DNA of 44,299 bases from Candidatus Micrarchaeia archaeon (GCA_049976305.1 JBMFIM010000006.1:1-44299); one strand, 5' to 3'. Positions 1-17,526 are shown, counted from the stretch's first letter. Numbers and translations are program-made. The notes: a model not told the origin generated them from the sequence alone.

Positions 1-105
1 GTTACTGTTGTTCCACTTCATAGAGAAATAAAGCTTGGTACGCTATTTGGTATATTGGAGTTAGGTAAAATTAGCAAAGAAGAATTCCTGAAAAGAACCA
101 AGTAA
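1..105 (+). CDS. hicA: HicA-family type II toxin, 3' part (truncated by window start)
   Basis: Not in the ORF track. Frame 1 reads VTVVPLHREIKLGTLFGILELGKISKEEFLKRTK*, matching the HicA C-terminal pattern (V.VP.H.E...GTL..IL......EEF). Confidence 0.75.
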   Translation, partial: VTVVPLHREIKLGTLFGILELGKISKEEFLKRTK

Positions 106-227
106 CTTGTTAGGGCTGGTGGCCATTGAACGGCAACGCCAACGACTACAGCGGCAACGGCAACAACGGCGTGCCAAGCAACGTTATGTTTGTGAGCAAC
201 TGGTGGTCTGGCTACACGCCGCCGTGA
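106..227 (+). repeat. Orphan copy A of the 3' end of the pilin-LamG gene (GWWPLNGNANDYSGNGNNGVPSNVMFVSNWWSGYTPP*)
   Basis: Aligns with 15154-15273 with 6 substitutions and a 2-nt insertion near its 5' end; has no start of its own; abuts the hicA stop codon. Confidence 0.95.
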
Positions 228-282
228 TTGCTGGTACTGTAACATATTTTATTTCTTTTCTGCTTAATCTTGTTGTGGCCTT

Positions 283-1752
283 ATGCAGAACGACGTCTAT
301 GAGATTGTAGCAAGGAGGGGCGTATTTTTCAGAGCTTTCAGCATATACAACGAAGTCGGCGGCTTCTATGACTTTGGCCCTATAGGCTTCAGGATAAGGA
401 AGAATATAGAGGCTGCTTGGAGAGATGTGTTTGTAAAGAAGACAGGTGCATATGAGGTAGAAACATCCCTTATCGTTTCAGAGCCTGTGCTTACTGCCAG
501 CGGCCACCTCTCAACGTTTACAGACCCTATAACTTATTGCGAGGTCTGCGGAACTCCTTACAGGGCAGACAAGCTTATTGAGAGCTATTTTGAGAAGAAT
601 GGAATGATTGAAGAGGCAGGCAATGTAAAGAAGGAAAATATTGATGAACTGGAAAAGCAGCTGAAGAGCTTGCCTATAAAATGCGAGAAATGCGGGAACA
701 GGAAATTTTCAAAAATAGAGAAATTCAACCTAGTGTTCAAGACTCAAGTAGGGCCCACAGGCAAGGAGCCCGCTTACTTGAGGCCAGAGACCGCTCAGGG
801 CATATTCGTAGATTTCTATTCCCTTTACCAAGCATATAGCCCAAAGCTTCCTTTTCTTGTTGCTCAAGCAGGCAAGTCTTTCAGGAATGAGATCTCGCCA
901 AGGCAGCAGCTTATCAGGCAAAGGGAGTTCGGCCAGATGGAGCTTGAGCTGTTCTTCGACCCTGAAGAAGGCGCAGCAGGCGAAATTGGCGTTTACAATT
1001 TGCCAAGCCTGCTCAATGAGGAAATCAATTTTGTGAAAGCAGGAAGCGAAGAGGCTAAAAAAGAGAGCCTCGCAAGCTTGCTAAGCTCGGGGCTAATACC
1101 ACACGCCTATATGGCATTACTTCTGTTTCTGGAGAAGAAGCTTATTGGCATTTTAGGAATAAAAGATGAGGAATACAGGTTTAGGCAGCTTGAGCCAGAG
1201 GAGCTGCCACACTATTCCAAGGGCAACATAGACCTCGAGGTTAGGACAAGTTACGGCTTTATAGAGGTAGCAGGCAACGCCTACAGGTCTGATTATGACC
1301 TAGGTCAGCATGCCAAGCTTAGCGGCAAAGATTTGAGGATAAATGTAAACGGAAAGAAGGTGCTTCCTCATGTTGTCGAAGCGAGTATGGGCCTAGACAG
1401 GCTTCTTATTGCTATGCTAGAGCACTCTTGGCAGAAGGGCGAAGACCGTGGATGGGCCTGGCTTAAGCTGCCTGAAAGCATAGCGCCTTATCGCTATGCC
1501 GTTTTTCCTTTGCAAAAGGACGATAAGCTTTTGGCGAAAGCAAAGGAAATATACAAGCACCTGCTCGAGCAGGGCGTAGACTGCTACTACTCAGAAACAG
1601 GCAGCATAGGCAAGCGCTATGCAAAAGCCGATGAGATAGGCGTACCTTATTGCGTGACAATAGACTACACCACGCTGGAAGATGATACAGTAACCATAAG
1701 GAACAGGGATACAACCCAGCAGGTAAGGAAAGAGGCATATGCAATACAATAA
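283..1752 (+). CDS. glyS: Glycyl-tRNA synthetase (class II, archaeal/eukaryotic type)
   Basis: GFYDFGPIG, YLRPETAQGIF, GKSFRNEISPRQQLIRQREFGQME, PHVVEASMGLDR, and anticodon-binding domain GSIGKRYAKADEIGVPYCVTID. Confidence 0.97.
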   Translation: MQNDVYEIVARRGVFFRAFSIYNEVGGFYDFGPIGFRIRKNIEAAWRDVFVKKTGAYEVETSLIVSEPVLTASGHLSTFTDPITYCEVCGTPYRADKLIESYFEKNGMIEEAGNVKKENIDELEKQLKSLPIKCEKCGNRKFSKIEKFNLVFKTQVGPTGKEPAYLRPETAQGIFVDFYSLYQAYSPKLPFLVAQAGKSFRNEISPRQQLIRQREFGQMELELFFDPEEGAAGEIGVYNLPSLLNEEINFVKAGSEEAKKESLASLLSSGLIPHAYMALLLFLEKKLIGILGIKDEEYRFRQLEPEELPHYSKGNIDLEVRTSYGFIEVAGNAYRSDYDLGQHAKLSGKDLRINVNGKKVLPHVVEASMGLDRLLIAMLEHSWQKGEDRGWAWLKLPESIAPYRYAVFPLQKDDKLLAKAKEIYKHLLEQGVDCYYSETGSIGKRYAKADEIGVPYCVTIDYTTLEDDTVTIRNRDTTQQVRKEAYAIQ

Positions 1753-3201: not shown

Positions 3202-3705
3202 ATGAATTGGCGACCAAAGGGCAAGAAAGCCCAAAGCGCAATGGAATACCTCATGACCTATGGCTGGGCAATACTCATAATTGCAGTAGTGCTCGGCGCA
3301 CTGTTCAGCCTCGGCGTATTCAGCAGCAGCTCTTTCCTCGGCACAGCCTGCATCCCTCAGTCAGGATACATGTGCAGCAACCCTATATTTCAACACGGAG
3401 TTGGACTGAAGCTTACATTGGGGCAAGCAACAGGAACTAGCTGGACAAGTGCTACTTTTTGTGTAATTCCTACCGGCGCATCATTACCTAGTTCAGGTTG
3501 CGGAAAATATGCAGCCAACACATCAAGCACAGGTCTGAATTCAGGACAAACAGTTACTCTTCTGTTTACAAATGATACTTTAGCATCGTTAACATCGTAT
3601 CCAATTGGGGCAGGATTCTCCGGGCAAGTATGGGCTTACTACAGCACTTCAACGAGCTCAAACCTCATGACAGAAATCGGCACAGTAACCGCAAAAGTGT
3701 CATAA
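3202..3705 (+). CDS. Type IV pilin-like protein with class III signal peptide
   Basis: KKAQ/SAMEYLMTYGWAILIIAVVLGALF class III signal followed by a short S/T/G-rich domain with 4 Cys. Confidence 0.9.
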   Translation: MNWRPKGKKAQSAMEYLMTYGWAILIIAVVLGALFSLGVFSSSSFLGTACIPQSGYMCSNPIFQHGVGLKLTLGQATGTSWTSATFCVIPTGASLPSSGCGKYAANTSSTGLNSGQTVTLLFTNDTLASLTSYPIGAGFSGQVWAYYSTSTSSNLMTEIGTVTAKVS

Positions 3706-12702: not shown

Positions 12703-14067
12703 ATTGAGAAACTTCTTTCTTAGCTCTCCGTAGACTATGTCTATATAGTCTTCTGGTACTTTGTCCACGTAAAGCTTCGCACCTTTCAGCATTATGTCTT
12801 TCCTTCTCTTTCTAAGCCCGCCTTTAGCCACAAACCTAAGTAGTTCTTCAGCGCTTGCGAATCTGTTGGGCTCTATGGCAAACAGAAGGTCGTCTTTCAA
12901 GAAAGTCGCTATTGCCCTTTTGTGCTTCTTGAGAAATAGGTCGCTTGCCGTCTTCATGAATACGCTTGGCCCTTTCATGATTCTTGACTGCGCTTGCAGC
13001 TCGCGTGAAACAAACATCATTATTCCCTTGTCCTCAAACACTACCGGGATTGCGAATTCGAAGTTATATGAGTATGCGTTTGCAAACTCCTTTATTATCT
13101 CTGCAGTTTTCCTAAGCTGCGGCCAAGTTATGTCTTCGCTTTTTTTTGGAAGCTTTGTAACCATGACGAATATGTGGAAGCCCGCAGTGCGGAGGAAGGC
13201 GTTTAGCCAGGATGCCGCCTCTTCGTGGGAAAAGCCCTTGTCGTAGAAAAGGCTTTTTGAAGGTTTTGCTACGAATGCTCTTGCAAGCAGCGTAAATCTC
13301 GCCAAAGACTCCATAGACACAGGCGCAGCCACGTTTCTGTCAGGGTCTACAGGATCCACTACCACAAATTTTGAATAAAACTTCTTTACAAGCTCAATAT
13401 TTTTGTTAAGATCCTTGCTTTTTGGCTCTATCACTATCGGTAGCTTTGCTTCTGCGAAAAATTTAAGCACATTGTAGAAGGAGCCGAACTGGTATACTAG
13501 CAGCTCGCAGAGATATCCTGAGAATCCGCCGGTATAGACTTCAGCGCCGTAAAGGTCATGGTTTTTGAGGAAGAACTTGAGAAGCCTAACCTCATCCTTT
13601 TCCTTTTCGCTCAACTGGCTAAGTACAAATTCGGTATGAAGCGGCGACCTGTCAACAGCCGTTGCCATCTCCTCTATGTTTTCTATTTTGTATGCAGGCA
13701 CTATGTCTGCTTCTACTCCCAAGCTGTATAAATATGCCCTAAGATACGGATGCTCCGCATATTTTATCTCGTAATCATCATCTTTGCCTATAATCTTCTT
13801 TGCATAATCGAGACCTTCTTTTGTTATTTCCTTTTTGCTTTTCTTCTTGTCGAAGAGAAGAAACACGTCTATGTCGGAGCTCCCTCTAAGATTTGTGCCA
13901 TGCACTAGCGAGCCTACGACCCTTATCTCTACGTTTCTTGGCACTATCCTCTCAAGTCTTCTTACTATTTCATCTACCTGCCCGGTTTCCTTCTCAATCT
14001 CCTCTTTGCTGGGCTTTATCCTTTCTAGAGCCTCCTTAAGTATTTTTTTCACCTTTTCTTCCTGCAT
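12697..14067 (-). CDS. cca: CCA-adding enzyme (archaeal class I)
   Basis: GSLVHGTNLRGSSDIDVF, YAEHPY, DIVPAY, AVDRSPLHT, YGAE..GGFSGYLCELL, DPVDPDRNVA. Confidence 0.97.
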   Translation of the reverse strand: MQEEKVKKILKEALERIKPSKEEIEKETGQVDEIVRRLERIVPRNVEIRVVGSLVHGTNLRGSSDIDVFLLFDKKKSKKEITKEGLDYAKKIIGKDDDYEIKYAEHPYLRAYLYSLGVEADIVPAYKIENIEEMATAVDRSPLHTEFVLSQLSEKEKDEVRLLKFFLKNHDLYGAEVYTGGFSGYLCELLVYQFGSFYNVLKFFAEAKLPIVIEPKSKDLNKNIELVKKFYSKFVVVDPVDPDRNVAAPVSMESLARFTLLARAFVAKPSKSLFYDKGFSHEEAASWLNAFLRTAGFHIFVMVTKLPKKSEDITWPQLRKTAEIIKEFANAYSYNFEFAIPVVFEDKGIMMFVSRELQAQSRIMKGPSVFMKTASDLFLKKHKRAIATFLKDDLLFAIEPNRFASAEELLRFVAKGGLRKRRKDIMLKGAKLYVDKVPEDYIDIVYGELRKKFLNL

Positions 14068-14108
14068 AAAAACAATTATATAAAGAAGTACATTTTAAAT
14101 AAGTGCTA

Positions 14109-14180
14109 GGGCTCGTAGCGCAGTAGTAGCGCGCTCCGTTCGCAGCGGAGAGGTCGCGGGTGCGAACCCCGCCGAGTCCA
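14109..14180 (+). tRNA. tRNA-Ala(CGC), with non-canonical A18 and G55
   Basis: Acceptor GGGCTCG/CGAGTCC with G3:U70; D stem GCGC/GCGC; anticodon stem CTCCG/CGGAG with CGC at 14141-14143; T stem GCGGG/CCCGC; discriminator A; CCA not encoded. Confidence 0.9.
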
Positions 14181-14289
14181 TTGTTTTTGGCAAAGTTTAG
14201 TCTGATTTCAAGTTGTCTTGTAGCTTTTTCTCAGTTTATGCAAGCTAAAAGAAGATACTTTTTATTTTTTAAATACTATAAGTGAAAAC

Positions 14290-15273
14290 ATGCAGAAAAG
14301 GGGCGCAATGAATGGGCAGCATCCAAAAGGTAACAATAATTCCAATCTTATTATAACAAAGAGGCTCTTAGCCGATGCTTCTCCGAAAGCCCAAAGCGCA
14401 ATGGAATACCTCATGACATACGGCTGGGCAATACTCATAATTGCAGTTGTGTTGGGCGCCTTGTTTCAGCTCGGCGTTTTCAACGCCAACAACTTCGCCC
14501 CGAAGGCGCCTCCAGGTGCGTGCCAGGTATTCAGGCCAAATGGGCCCTACACGACTTCTTTTATTAATTTAGAGGGTGAGTGTCAGGGCGAGCTTCCACA
14601 ATATGTAGCGCAGTTCAATGGCGGAGGCAACACTGGCATTACACTTAATTCGTACAATTTCAATACTACTCCCTTTACTATATCTTTTTGGGAGTACTAT
14701 TTTAGTTATACTAATTGTTATACCTCAAGCAACGGAGGAAACTGTGACGAAAATGTAACGATGAATGTTAATCCAAACAAATGTAGGTCCAGCTCTAATT
14801 ATTTATGTGTAATAGATTTCGATCTTAGGACTACTTTATTACATTGGTTTACTTGGGGTAGGGATATTTTTTATAACCCTGTTCAAACAGGAAAATGGTA
14901 TTTTATTGCATGGACCTATAACCCGTCGAAAGAAAACAATATTTCTGCGTATTTAAATGGAGTTCTAATTGGAAGCAATACTGGCGCAAATGTTGTACTT
15001 GATGGACGAATAACCATCGGCTATGGAGGCGGGGTAGGGAGCATAGACGGATATGTATCTAATTTCCAAATTTATAACACTTCACTATCTGCAAATCAGA
15101 TTCAAGCGCTCTACCGAGAGGGCATAGGCGGCGCGCCCATAGACTTGCAGCACCTTGTTGGCTGGTGGCCGTTGAACGGCGACGCCAACGACTATAGTGG
15201 CAACGGCAACAACGGCGTGCCAAGCAATGTTGTGTTTGTGAGCAACTGGTGGTCTGGCTACACGCCGCCGTGA
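14290..15273 (+). CDS. Type IV pilin-like adhesin with class III signal peptide and LamG/concanavalin-like domain
   Basis: KAQ/SAMEYLMTYGWAILIIAVVL signal; LamG motifs FTISFW, GKWYFIAWTY, AYLNG, IDGYVSNFQIYNTSLSANQIQALY, LVGWWPLNGDANDYSGNGNNG. Confidence 0.9.
   Translation: MQKRGAMNGQHPKGNNNSNLIITKRLLADASPKAQSAMEYLMTYGWAILIIAVVLGALFQLGVFNANNFAPKAPPGACQVFRPNGPYTTSFINLEGECQGELPQYVAQFNGGGNTGITLNSYNFNTTPFTISFWEYYFSYTNCYTSSNGGNCDENVTMNVNPNKCRSSSNYLCVIDFDLRTTLLHWFTWGRDIFYNPVQTGKWYFIAWTYNPSKENNISAYLNGVLIGSNTGANVVLDGRITIGYGGGVGSIDGYVSNFQIYNTSLSANQIQALYREGIGGAPIDLQHLVGWWPLNGDANDYSGNGNNGVPSNVVFVSNWWSGYTPP
15138..15273 (+). repeat. Copy B (in-gene copy) of the repeated pilin-LamG 3' end
   Basis: Direct-repeat match to 106-227 and 16594-16709. 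Confidence 0.95.
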
Positions 15274-15285
15274 GTGGGCATGATT

Positions 15286-16527
15286 TTAGCTGGGCTTTAG
15301 CGTCTTAAGGCTTTCTACGTCTATCGGCTTTATGCCCTCGTCCTCTAAATATTCAAATCCTCTTTTGTCCCTTACAAACAAGAACTTTCTTTTTGTGTCA
15401 AACTTTTTCATACTGTTTATTATGCCGGTGATATCGTTGCTGCTCAGCCTTTTTCCCCACTTTACTTCAAGCAGAACTTCTGGTTTGTTGAAGCGAAGGA
15501 GCAATCCATCAACGTCATAATCGCTTGCCTCAAGGACAGATTCGGCCAAGCCAAACTTATGGGCGAGCTCTTCCCTTATAGCATCTTCGACAATCCTTGG
15601 CATTATTTCATCTACAATTCTTATTGCCTCGGCTTCTGTAAAATCGCGCATAGATATTCCATATTTTTCGTCAGCATAAAAGAACAGGCGCATAAGTGGC
15701 GAAGCTATTTTGTAAACGTTCTTGTTTTTGCCAAATACCTTTATCCTCCTGAGTATTCCTAAATTTATTAAGGTGTTCAGATACGGCTGTATTATGCTTG
15801 GATCGTCTTTTGGTATCAGCTTCTTAGAAAAGAGGCTACTTGCAATTTCGCCGCTCACAACCTTGCCGCCAGCTACAGATCTTACAATACCTTCATATGT
15901 CGCAGCTATGCTTTTTTCTTCTTCAATAAATATCTCCCCGAAAAGCGCAGGAACACTATTCTTAGACCCCATCAATATCTTTGCTATTGTCTCTCTTGCA
16001 CTTGTCCTATTGTCAAAATAGTCTATTGCAATTGGCTCTCTCATAATTGTTGCGACCTCGAGAAGGTCGGCGTTTGCGAGTCCATAAGGTGTTAGTGCTT
16101 CTAAGACTTCGTCGAGACTTATTATTGGTATCTGTATTTCGTTGAAGTAGCCGAGCAGGCTCGAATGCTCAGCAACAAGCTTCTTTGCCAAATTTAGCGT
16201 AGATGTAATTGCTATGAGCTTACCATCTTTGCTTACCGCATGAAGCAGGTCGAAGAATGGCTCGCCGAGCCTGTGAAATTCATCTACAACTACGCACTTT
16301 TTTGAAGACAGCTCCCTAAGCAGAATTTCAACGAATGCATCGTAGCTAATGATCCTATTATCTCTTTTTGACAATATGGTCCTGTCTCTATTTACAAAAA
16401 AGTACTCATCATAGCTTACAAACTTTTCTACAAGGAATGACTTGCCAGTCTTTCTCCTGCCATATACAAGTACCCACTTTTTGGAAGAGTCTATTTTCTC
16501 GGCTTCTACCCGCCTTTCCACAATCAT
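15286..16527 (-). CDS. Archaeal ATPase with winged-helix and C-terminal PD-(D/E)XK (DUF234-like) domain
   Basis: LVYGRRKTGKS (Walker A), VVVDEFH (Walker B), YLNTLINLGILRR...YKIASP wHTH, DVDGLL...LLEVKW nuclease-like motif. Confidence 0.85.
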   Translation of the reverse strand: MIVERRVEAEKIDSSKKWVLVYGRRKTGKSFLVEKFVSYDEYFFVNRDRTILSKRDNRIISYDAFVEILLRELSSKKCVVVDEFHRLGEPFFDLLHAVSKDGKLIAITSTLNLAKKLVAEHSSLLGYFNEIQIPIISLDEVLEALTPYGLANADLLEVATIMREPIAIDYFDNRTSARETIAKILMGSKNSVPALFGEIFIEEEKSIAATYEGIVRSVAGGKVVSGEIASSLFSKKLIPKDDPSIIQPYLNTLINLGILRRIKVFGKNKNVYKIASPLMRLFFYADEKYGISMRDFTEAEAIRIVDEIMPRIVEDAIREELAHKFGLAESVLEASDYDVDGLLLRFNKPEVLLEVKWGKRLSSNDITGIINSMKKFDTKRKFLFVRDKRGFEYLEDEGIKPIDVESLKTLKPS

Positions 16528-16537
16528 ATAATCACAA

Positions 16538-16561
16538 TAAGTATAATTATGATTATACTTA
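16538..16561. promoter_or_regulatory. Perfect 10-bp inverted repeat, candidate operator of the ATPase gene
   Basis: TAAGTATAAT-TATG-ATTATACTTA, 11-34 nt upstream of the minus-strand ATG at 16527. Confidence 0.6.
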
Positions 16562-16593
16562 AAACCTTTTCTATTTATGGCTCAAACGGCATA

Positions 16594-16709
16594 CATAGAC
16601 ATGCTTGCAGCACCTTGTTGGCTGGTGGCCGTTGAACGGCAACGGCAACAACGGCGTGCCAAGCAATGTTGTGTTTGTGAGCAACTGGTGGAATGGCCAC
16701 ACGCCGTAA
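16594..16709 (+). repeat. Orphan copy C of the pilin-LamG 3' end (degenerate)
   Basis: Matches 15138-15273 with a 4-nt insertion, an in-frame 21-nt deletion (gacgccaacgactatagtggc) and a variant tail WWNGHTP*. Confidence 0.93.
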
Positions 16710-16836
16710 TTTGCTTGTTTCTTGGGCGGACAGCTTTCTAATTATAGGAAGAATAAGTCAGGTAGTATTGAAAATGTAAGTGTCAAAGTAGGCTTAGACA
16801 TATGCCTTATTAAATCTTAAAGCTCTCATTTTATGC

Positions 16837-17526
16837 ATGGACCAGCTCGAAGAGAGAATATCTGGAGAGATAACAATGAGCGATGCGCCAGGAACTACTA
16901 TGAAGAAATGGCGTGAAATATTTGGCATATCGCAAGTGGAGCTTTCCAAGTATTTGAAGATATCCCCCTCTACAATAAGCGACTATGAAGGCAATAGAAG
17001 AGCAAGCCCTGGTGTAAACGTCGTCAAGAGGTTTGTGCACGCGCTTGTGCAAATAGACCAGGAGCGAGGCGGAAGCGTTATAAGGAACTTGCAGAAGCTT
17101 GAAGCCAAGTCCGAAGAAACAAATTACTACTATCTTCATGACTTCTCAGCTCCAATAACAGGCGTTGACTTTGCAAGGCAAATAGAGGCAAAGATAATAA
17201 CAAATCCCAACTACCTCGATACCATGAAGCTCTTTGGCTACACAATTCTAAATAGCCTAAAGGTCATTCTCGAGATATCGCCAAGCGAGTATCCAAGGCT
17301 ATTCGGCTCTACGTCAGAGCGTGCCTTTATTTTTGATGAGGTAAGCACCGGCAGGTCCCCAATGGTGGTTGTGCGCGTAGCACCGATAAAACCTAAGATA
17401 GTGGTAATACTCAACCTTGACAATGTGGACAAGCTTGCAGTGAAAATCTCTCAAATAGAGCACGTTCCATTGCTGACTACAAAGCTAAGCGCCGAAGAAA
17501 TAAAGCTCAGGCTTGGAAATATTTAG
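16837..17526 (+). CDS. Conserved archaeal XRE-family HTH transcriptional regulator (COG1709-like)
   Basis: ISGEITMSDAPGTTMKKWREIFGISQVELS...SPSTISDYEGNRRASPG; ERAFIFDEVSTGRSPMV. Confidence 0.88.
   Translation: MDQLEERISGEITMSDAPGTTMKKWREIFGISQVELSKYLKISPSTISDYEGNRRASPGVNVVKRFVHALVQIDQERGGSVIRNLQKLEAKSEETNYYYLHDFSAPITGVDFARQIEAKIITNPNYLDTMKLFGYTILNSLKVILEISPSEYPRLFGSTSERAFIFDEVSTGRSPMVVVRVAPIKPKIVVILNLDNVDKLAVKISQIEHVPLLTTKLSAEEIKLRLGNI

Follow-up and report, generated by a model that had tools for sequence, protein, structure and literature searches.

The DNA considered here (the window) is a contig of 44,299 nucleotides (nt), C6, from the genome of a Candidatus Micrarchaeia archaeon (GCA_049976305.1 JBMFIM010000006.1:1-44299), and the subject of this analysis is a pilin-like gene with a LamG domain (pilin-LamG gene) whose 3' end, referred to below as the tail, recurs on the far side of a single ATPase gene that lies behind it. 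The genome (G000) comprises 723 kb in 34 contigs, with an archaeal 23S rRNA gene on contig C2 and a completeness of 93.7%, and was compared with its relatives across 41 genomes of the order, of which G001 to G005 are congeners and G004 is the closest. All of these genomes are bins assembled from short reads, and their contigs often break inside the pilin tail repeat. The genes and repeats at the locus are the following, with protein lengths in amino acids (aa).

14109..14180, plus strand: tRNA-Ala(CGC), the left border of the variable region (ARAGORN; Rfam, 61.6 bits)
14290..15273, plus strand: pilin-like LamG gene, encoding 327 aa that comprise a predicted N-terminal hydrophobic helix, a Laminin_G_3 domain and, at the C-terminus, a conserved tail
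15146..15273, plus strand: copy B of the tail, which is the left direct repeat and serves the pilin gene as its functional end, placed by alignments
15274..16603, no strand: probable inserted one-gene cassette (1,330 nt), without terminal inverted repeats and absent at the G002 site
15286..16527, minus strand: ATPase gene (413 aa), with an AAA_14 domain and a D..EVK nuclease-like motif near the C-terminus
16528..16590, minus strand: ATPase upstream region, carried along with the gene, 91% identical to the end of contig C28 of G001, where the DNA beyond ~16590 is unrelated
16604..16709, plus strand: copy C of the tail, the right direct repeat and an orphan pilin end, which has its own TAA and is shortened by a 21-nt in-frame deletion
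16782-16836 and 16837-17526, plus strand: promoter region and gene of an HTH_3 regulator (Pfam HTH_3), the right border of the insertion site

An earlier note on this DNA had reported that the pilin-LamG end recurs in direct orientation, and the repeat finder, gapped alignment and blastn all agree with it, the coordinates being right within a few bases. A direct family of three copies was returned by the repeat finder at 114-230, 15160-15276 (94% identical to the first) and 16599-16715 (64% ungapped). In the gapped alignment copy C lacks 21 nt, in frame, as had been described, and outside this gap identity is 101/107 between B and C, 116/123 between A and B, and 91/99 between A and C; the blastn E-values of 1e-47 (A-B) and 5e-32 (B-C) are far beyond chance. 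Copy B is the true end of the 327-aa gene at 14290-15273, and copies A and C are orphans: the frame of A, near the left end of the window, has 37 codons and is closed upstream by TAG, and that of C has 36 codons and ends in its own stop codon, TAA, at 16707-16709. Also as described, B and C bracket exactly one gene with its upstream region, the only long open reading frame (ORF) between them being the AAA_14 gene at 15286-16527 on the minus strand. The G+C fraction is 0.411 in this gene and 0.443-0.45 around it. The putative cassette extends about 12 nt past the ATPase stop codon, and no terminal inverted repeats were found at its ends, where the longest inverted match is 6 nt. An Rfam scan of 13800-17200 found the tRNA-Ala alone.

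The reading that we prefer, to which we assign a probability of roughly 0.6, is that 15274-16603 is a self-contained one-gene cassette inserted behind the stop codon of the pilin-LamG gene with a long target duplication. Such an insertion would have duplicated the last ~105-125 nt of the pilin gene, with copy B keeping the pilin whole and copy C being the displaced spare.

An empty counterpart of the site is present on contig C63 of G002, where the pilin end is followed by ~40 nt and then by the conserved promoter and HTH_3 gene, with no ATPase gene and no second tail; copy C occupies the same position as this pilin end. Between the window and G002:C63 the tail peptide is 92% identical and the HTH protein 81% (aa), and when the G002 tail is included in the comparison, identity is 98/101 for B-C versus 107/122 for B-G002 and 87/101 for C-G002. 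The ~55 nt upstream of the HTH gene align in all congeners compared (5/5). In two hot-spring metagenome runs from two studies (X1 and X3), contigs join 15271 to 16779 directly, skipping 1,507 nt (one contig each, side 48 and side 30, respectively); the comparison was made with Logan contigs of public runs at a likeness set to 85%, so that the joins may come from relatives. That the duplicated gene end marks the insertion of an accessory gene, as had been proposed, is upheld by the empty-site allele of G002 and by the X1 and X3 contigs.

The layout recurs in relatives, as had been anticipated. Within the genus there are 12 loci with a clear member of the ATPase family, seven of which have a copy of the tail within about 200 nt; outside the genus, where 60 of 66 ATPase loci were examined, a tail is nearby at 4/60. 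The loci concerned are the following.

G000:C6 (the window): tail, ATPase, tail
G003:C4: a strong AAA_14+DUF4143 gene with an orphan tail on each side, the whole lying between HAD/HIT and EF-Tu-like genes
G003:C22: tail on one side
G000:C19: tail on one side only
G004:C21: tail on one side only
G004:C1: tail and ATPase gene co-directional
G001:C48: partial tail adjoining a ribosomal protein gene
G040:C21 and G040:C30 (outside the genus): pilin-tail, ATPase, orphan tail
G040:C4 (outside the genus): pilin-tail, ATPase
G032 (outside the genus): ATPase between two full pilin genes

At an eighth locus of the genus (G003:C11) the ATPase gene comes after another pilin-like gene. The complete order of tail, ATPase and tail is found at four loci (G000:C6, G003:C4, G040:C21 and G040:C30), and at five others (G000:C19, G004:C21, G003:C22, G001:C48 and G040:C4) the far side of a tail-ATPase pair is cut off or bare. 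The genes that flank the G003:C4 locus lie on three different contigs of G000, and no empty site could be defined there. A label of AbiEi, considered for a 104-aa ORF beside an orphan on G003:C20, was dropped for want of Pfam support.

The footprint is also present at genes other than pilin. Across the order, 21 of 63 ATPase family ORFs have some repeat in their flanks, and 14 of 63 are hugged by direct repeats of 45-341 nt. A control scan of 158 G000 ORFs of 330-520 aa found five with any repeat, and a repeat of ≥45 nt at the window ATPase only (0/157 others); by Fisher's test p is 8e-9 for 14/63 versus 0/157, and 5e-6 when the pilin loci are removed (9/58). Four of the targets are as follows.

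G030: 107 nt, 99% identity, at the 3' end of a ParA/MinD-type gene, stopping at the stop codon
G022: 82 nt, at the end of a VIT1 gene
G035: 121 nt, at the 5' end of a small gene
G007: 24 nt, at the 3' end of tRNA-Glu, below the 45-nt threshold and outside the 14

A capture system specific to adhesins, as the earlier note had envisaged, does not agree with the same footprint at ParA-type, VIT1 and tRNA-Glu ends. No empty site was found for the ParA-type target of G030 (L063) among the relatives, which matched only part of the ParA gene (67-71% nt identity) at loci that stop short of the right-hand neighbour. In G024 (G024:C8:967-5382; L056 and L087), a 134-nt direct repeat (95%) at two neighbouring AAA_14/DUF4143 genes copies the 3' end of one of the ATPase genes, as would result if a cassette had entered another at its end.

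The locus of G001 allows the cassette to be followed into other surroundings. An unbroken stretch of 85% identity between G000 and G001 runs from a point in the tail (15182) to within the ATPase gene; on the upstream side their likeness ends at ~16590, and the G001 DNA beyond has no tail. The partial tail of G001 lies beside a ribosomal protein gene and not a pilin gene, so the cassette can take part of the tail along to foreign surroundings; no duplication was found at the new site in G001. Elsewhere in the order, an ATPase gene of G040 (L053) and one of G030 (L060) are 90.5% identical in nucleotides over exactly 1,335 nt (the ORF, 6 nt and 33 nt) between unrelated flanks, and genomes of different families contain near-identical ATPase genes. 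The cassettes are discrete units that have spread horizontally. In a quick tree of the ATPase family (five fragments of <330 aa were left out of the tree and of the flank comparison), the tail-linked members are scattered, with nine label changes for ten rows, and 205 of 500 shuffles gave a value as low. A single clade of tail-targeting ATPases, considered as a candidate, was ruled out by this scattered placement.

The orphan tails could be accounted for in another way, by the decay of a tandem array in which two adjacent pilin-LamG paralogues stood around the ATPase gene, the body of the second was deleted and its end was left as copy C, copy A being a similar remnant. Pilin-LamG genes often stand in tandem in this order, paralogues next to each other may be almost identical, so that the identity of 98/101 between B and C is compatible with such an origin, and on contig C1 of G032 a pilin, an ATPase and a pilin gene are followed by four units of 1,974 nt and three more pilin genes. 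For the window locus alone a decayed pilin array is plausible; as an account of the whole it is unlikely. It leaves unexplained the same footprint at the single-copy ParA-type, VIT1 and tRNA-Glu ends, it requires at each of the four tail-ATPase-tail loci a separate deletion that ended within ~150 nt of the stop codon, and it does not provide for the movement of a partial tail with the ATPase gene into a non-pilin context in G001. The orphans themselves start at 25-106 of the 186-nt query and all reach the stop codon, and all internal orphans of the genus (8/8) lie within about 150 nt of it, which counts against the array as well. Since the orphans are uniformly short, a bounded duplication fits them better than the random decay of a 980-nt gene. 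Ten contiguous genomes gave 109 tail matches, of which three have frames of <100 aa; a contig end cuts two of these, leaving one internal orphan. Over most of the order orphan ends are uncommon, and not the many loci that the earlier note named as support. An orphan tail on contig C5 of G021 (L105:3943-4041) lies 33 nt behind a 532-aa pilin-like gene with a different C-terminal motif.

The abundance of the cassette was also considered in the metagenomes. In run X1, contigs with the ATPase gene (window 15284-16561; 98-99.5% identical) have a word depth of ~60, those with the flanking CCA, pilin and HTH genes have 3-6, and the contig with the empty-site join has 5.2. The cassette may belong to a more abundant organism or be multi-copy in the X1 community; metagenome contigs drop rare forms, and contig depth is not copy number. 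Such depths, together with the many contigs of the genus that start or end inside the tail, are in keeping with an artefact in which the real chromosome has the empty site, and the cassette and one tail were taken from an abundant strain or a small circle and joined to it by the assembler through words of the tail. This is quite improbable. Even so, the reads would have to hold the junctions of tail end with ATPase end and of ATPase upstream region with mid-tail, and the differences between B and C are not expected from one shared copy. Independent instances of the tail/ATPase junction are moreover present in G001:C48 and, in run X2, in a contig of 1,413 nt, and the order of tail, ATPase and tail lies inside long contigs of three other assemblies.

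No match to PF00589 (Phage_integrase), PF00239 (Resolvase), PF01797 (Y1_Tnp) or PF00665 (rve) was found in G000, in a search whose controls matched PF00589 in 14/14 genomes and PF00239 in 12/14. Not even an Xer-type recombinase, of the Phage_integrase family, was matched in this 93.7%-complete genome, and one TnpB-type fragment lies at the end of another G000 contig. Site-specific integration, with B and C as attL and attR and an integrase acting in trans, would account for the fact that repeats end at the stop codon or tRNA 3' end of the target, like classical att sites; with no integrase gene in the insert, no tyrosine or serine recombinase family found in G000, and repeat lengths that range from 24 to 341 nt at many different targets, it is extremely unlikely.

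In Campbell-type insertion-duplication, and in homology-facilitated illegitimate recombination, one stretch of homology integrates DNA via host recombination and leaves homology on both sides. Under the preferred reading of a cassette with a long target duplication, the cassette would travel with one copy of the host gene end, for example looped out between the flanking repeats, and would re-enter at any matching gene end by host homologous recombination, in a single crossover of the Campbell type that regenerates the two repeats. The pilin-LamG end may be favoured as a landing pad because it is multi-copy and conserved in DNA across the order. Recombination via portable homology is the most likely route, in view of the tail that travelled in G001, the multi-copy conserved target, the variable repeat lengths and the lack of recombinases; a circular intermediate, the use of host recombination and a role for the cassette's own nuclease would be parts of it. 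A wider proposal, which is tentative and on balance rather unlikely, is that AAA_14/DUF4143 (PDC-S01-type) genes are autonomous recombinase-free cassettes that move by portable gene-end homology, a circle and host recombination, with the pilin end as a universal dock. Entry might then be triggered by a cut from the PD-(D/E)XK domain of the cassette, the docking site would let cassettes hop between paralogues and species, and in one metagenome, where the cassette exceeds its flanks ~12-fold, the surplus could be the free circle.

Several observations weigh against the insertion of a cassette with target duplication. The single-crossover entry of cargo circles, which the earlier note had put forward, remains the preferred mechanism, but no circle junction was seen in the contigs of four public metagenome runs, which cannot show rare forms, and run X5 gave no matching contig. 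Copies B and C differ by the 21-nt deletion and in the last ~20 nt, and so are not a fresh exact duplication. The empty site belongs to another species, with 84-88% nucleotide identity in the tail; its contig (G002:C63) starts inside the pilin gene, and SpeE, the next gene in the window, was not found after the HTH gene on it, so that orthology is judged on the tail, the promoter and the HTH gene. No long direct repeat flanks 49 of the 63 ATPase family ORFs, no tail is near 56 of the 60 ATPase loci outside the genus, the tail is one-sided at G000:C19 and G004:C21, and the G032 ATPase lies between two complete pilin genes, as decay from tandem paralogues predicts. The control ORFs, furthermore, come from one genome, and related genomes are non-independent samples.

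Finally, the closest relative, G004 (L014, G004:C6), is 90% identical up to 14180 and then has a different pilin gene after the tRNA-Ala, and other genes, among them GrpB and a bPH_3 membrane protein, lie upstream of its HTH gene. Variation extends over the whole of the interval between tRNA-Ala and HTH, in which the order of events is not fixed. Past the tRNA-Ala, G004 carries an additional ~410 nt and a pilin that corresponds to the window pilin in its first 71 residues (69% identical) and has an unrelated Ser/Thr-rich body, and from this comparison the pilin gene next to the tRNA-Ala has evidently been replaced between G000 and G004. Such a replacement, the first option of the earlier note, could have created the repeats, if an incoming pilin allele with the ATPase gene was joined on the left at a conserved anchor and on the right by illegitimate recombination in the resident pilin gene, the end of which would be copy C. 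The wholly different pilin genes within flanks that are 90% identical, the greater identity of the window pilin to one of G032 (74%) than to its own paralogue (only 55%), and the varying 5' break points of the orphans are all consistent with this. As the origin of the repeats, replacement is nevertheless very unlikely, for B and C are each other's closest copies (101/107), which is unexpected for the ends of two old alleles, and an exchange of alleles is not required for the footprint at single-copy targets other than pilin.

The protein encoded by the putative cassette matches Pfam AAA_14 with 37.5 bits (cut-off, 27) over residues 16-142 and has no Pfam DUF4143 match. Against the PADLOC model PDC-S01 it scores 26.8 bits (E 6e-7), in the N-terminal part only, and its relatives at other repeat-flanked loci score 66-362 bits. 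When the clade of the window ATPase was compared by hhalign with 58 DUF4143-bearing relatives, the match had a probability of 97.6% (E 3e-12) over residues 19-423, and the D..EVK motif of this clade was placed against the motif of the relatives. By these profile comparisons the window ATPase is best classed as AAA_14/DUF4143-type (PDC-S01-like) but divergent, lying far out in the family. Homologues at E ≤1e-10 are present in 4/41 genomes: G000, G001 (88% aa identity, the contig ending inside the gene), and G035 and G037 (54%).

The protein encoded at 14290-15273, which we take to be a pilin from the look of its N-terminal motif, has a Laminin_G_3 domain (Pfam, 51.9 bits, residues 112-272) and matched no pilin family in Pfam. 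An N-terminal block, QSAMEYLMTYGWAIL...G, is invariant in all aligned pilin-LamG proteins (7/7), and a helix is predicted at residues 33-60 in a low-confidence model. The AlphaFold2 model, built from an alignment of seven rows, has a mean pLDDT (predicted local distance difference test) of 50.1, with 34-67 in the tail, and is too poor to speak to the function of the tail. A DNA search with 14100-17000 gave matches in 41/41 genomes of the order, many per genome, at 70-89% identity, which fall on the 5' end of the gene (signal and helix) and on its 3' end (LamG end and tail) and rarely on the middle. The pilin-LamG genes appear from these matches to be a multigene family with conserved ends and variable bodies. 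Selection on the tail at the DNA level was considered and rejected: the tail is 84-88% identical in nucleotides to that of G002 and the neighbouring genes are 73-76% identical, and ordinary protein constraint suffices.

The earlier note had allowed that only three copies of the tail might exist, and the genome search found at least four further copies in G000 beyond A, B and C. The copy at C13:14076-14249 (minus strand) belongs to an intact pilin paralogue; two others are at the very starts of contigs C19 (3-168) and C16 (1-83); and a degenerate piece at C2:46925-47047 (L115:1426-1548) is flanked by a nucleotidyl transferase gene and the 23S rRNA gene and has no adjoining cargo gene. More distant versions of the tail motif follow LamG domains of larger proteins in G000. 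Pilin 5' or 3' ends are found at the edges of contigs C16, C19 and C25 (3790-3880) of G000, C1 and C21 of G004, C63, C50 and C46 of G002, C22 of G005 and C1 of G001. The conserved pilin ends are a main cause of assembly breaks in the bins of this genus, and the conserved 3' end can mislead binning and synteny analysis in the group.

The genes that come after pilin ends in G000 are the window ATPase gene after copy B, an AAA_14+DUF4143 gene on C19, an AbiEii toxin homologue with a partner ORF on C13, and a NUDIX gene on C16; the 3' flanks of pilin genes are a hot spot for accessory genes. The idea that varied cargo follows the pilin end holds insofar as these genes are mostly of accessory or defence type (two ATPases, AbiEii, hicA, and an MNT-type gene in G032), but what lies between the repeats is always the same ATPase family.

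Some further observations concern the pilin family. A second pilin-like gene in the window (3202-3705) encodes 167 aa with no Pfam domain, and its signal and helix region is repeated in the LamG pilin gene (3225-3322 versus 14385-14482, 88% nucleotide identity over 98 nt). Along its entire length, the variable body too, the window pilin shares 74% identity with a pilin of G032 (L104:12393-13277), from another family of the order, and it shares only 55% with the paralogue on C13 of its own genome; pilin alleles seem to be shared across distant genomes. On contig C1 of G032 (L104, 581000-598500) there is an array of 10 pilin-LamG genes, in which a pilin and an AAA_14 ATPase gene are followed by four tandem units of 1,974 nt, each with genes for a 292-aa pilin and a 175-aa Polbeta/MNT-type nucleotidyltransferase; the four units are 98.4-99.4% identical, and after them come three adjacent pilin genes, an opposite-strand ORF of 620 aa and a final pilin gene. 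This array looks like a recent amplification of a unit of pilin plus cargo via unequal crossing-over.

The remaining copy of the tail in the window, copy A, stands among the following features.

1..105, plus strand: 3' part of a hicA toxin gene that is truncated by the contig start and whose stop codon abuts copy A
106..230, plus strand: copy A, the orphaned end of a pilin-LamG gene, which lacks a start codon and has an in-frame TAG just upstream
283..1752, plus strand: class II aminoacyl-tRNA synthetase gene (Pfam tRNA-synt_2b and HGTP_anticodon), the right neighbour of copy A

The 34-aa fragment encoded by 1-105 has no Pfam match itself, and a full-length relative in G040 (L101:1372-1602), 76% identical, matches HicA_toxin with 49.2 bits and is preceded by a HicB-like gene; the earlier placement of this copy right after a HicA toxin is accordingly sound. 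No repeats were found around hicBA in the relatives' loci (3/3). The synthetase region is 93% identical in nucleotides to G004:C14, with homology starting only at base 238, and both G004 and G005 have a gene of 175-193 aa directly upstream of the synthetase gene. Farther left, the G004 flank matches contig C25 of G000 at 90%, and a pilin-LamG gene begins at the end of C25. In G000 the probable order is the C25 flank, a pilin gene, an unassembled gap, hicA, orphan A and the synthetase gene, and copy A may therefore belong to a second locus of pilin, cargo and orphan with a different visible cargo, the rest of which is hidden by the assembly gap.

Among known systems, Campbell-type insertion offers a similar mechanism, and it is known mainly from the laboratory and from transformation of bacteria; no circular form was seen for the window. 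The pilS cassettes of Neisseria and orphan modules of Rhs and contact-dependent inhibition (CDI) systems are, like the orphans of the window, promoterless fragments downstream of an expressed surface-protein gene and homologous to it. Those fragments carry swappable variable parts, whereas the window orphans consist of the conserved last 36-37 codons, near-identical to the expressed end; with no alternative variable modules in them, the resemblance to pilS and Rhs drawn by the earlier note does not extend to function as a store of variants. Orphans A and C are followed by the tRNA synthetase gene and the HTH gene, respectively, both of which are conserved in congeners.

The cargo has its own precedents. 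Genes of the PDC-S01 or AAA_14+DUF4143 type (COG1373) are, in the accessible portions of the sources, candidate defence ATPases that form one-gene systems (PADLOC-DB; PMC12988326; PMC3424549), and PDC-S01-type genes are given there as the fourth most common defence candidate in prokaryotes, enriched in archaea (PMC12988326). As far as those sources describe it, the family resembles the window gene in its N-terminal P-loop ATPase, its many transfers between lineages and perhaps its C-terminal PD-(D/E)XK-type domain; the window protein differs in being so distant (26.8 bits to PDC-S01, no Pfam DUF4143 match). No printed description of flanking repeats or of the mode of spread of PDC-S01/DUF4143 ATPase genes was found in the literature accessible, at least in part, and an existing one could have been overlooked.

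The locus and its relatives form a compact, testable case, with a cassette of 1.3 kb, an empty site and a multi-copy landing pad. If host recombination and portable homology suffice, they would account for the mobility of defence genes in very small, integrase-free genomes. Insertion accompanied by a long target duplication has remained without explanation as a mode of mobility from the time when it was reported for bacterial restriction-modification (RM) genes (PMC2853133), where its mechanism is called unknown, and in the accessible text of that study by Furuta, Abe and Kobayashi (2010) no archaeal case survived the screen. The RM units, as presented in that text, are like the window in several respects: a short insert of selfish or defence type lies between variable direct repeats of >30 bp, the repeats align to a single copy in an insert-free genome and often overlap the 3' end of a gene, and the insert holds no transposase or integrase. 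Of the features by which these units were recognized in the text available (PMC2853133), the window insert has repeats of >30 bp, an empty site (between species, not strains), no mobility gene and a length of <20 kb, and it lacks R and M genes; since its only gene is an AAA_14-type ATPase, it is a variant of the long-target-duplication mode and not a member of the RM set. Its cargo is a single putative ATPase-nuclease gene and its host is archaeal, unlike the RM units, and its target is a multi-copy conserved gene end, so that orphans pile up and the landing homology is portable between genomes. The archaeal host and the use of the end of a multi-copy adhesin gene as the target are what is novel here in comparison with the RM cases.

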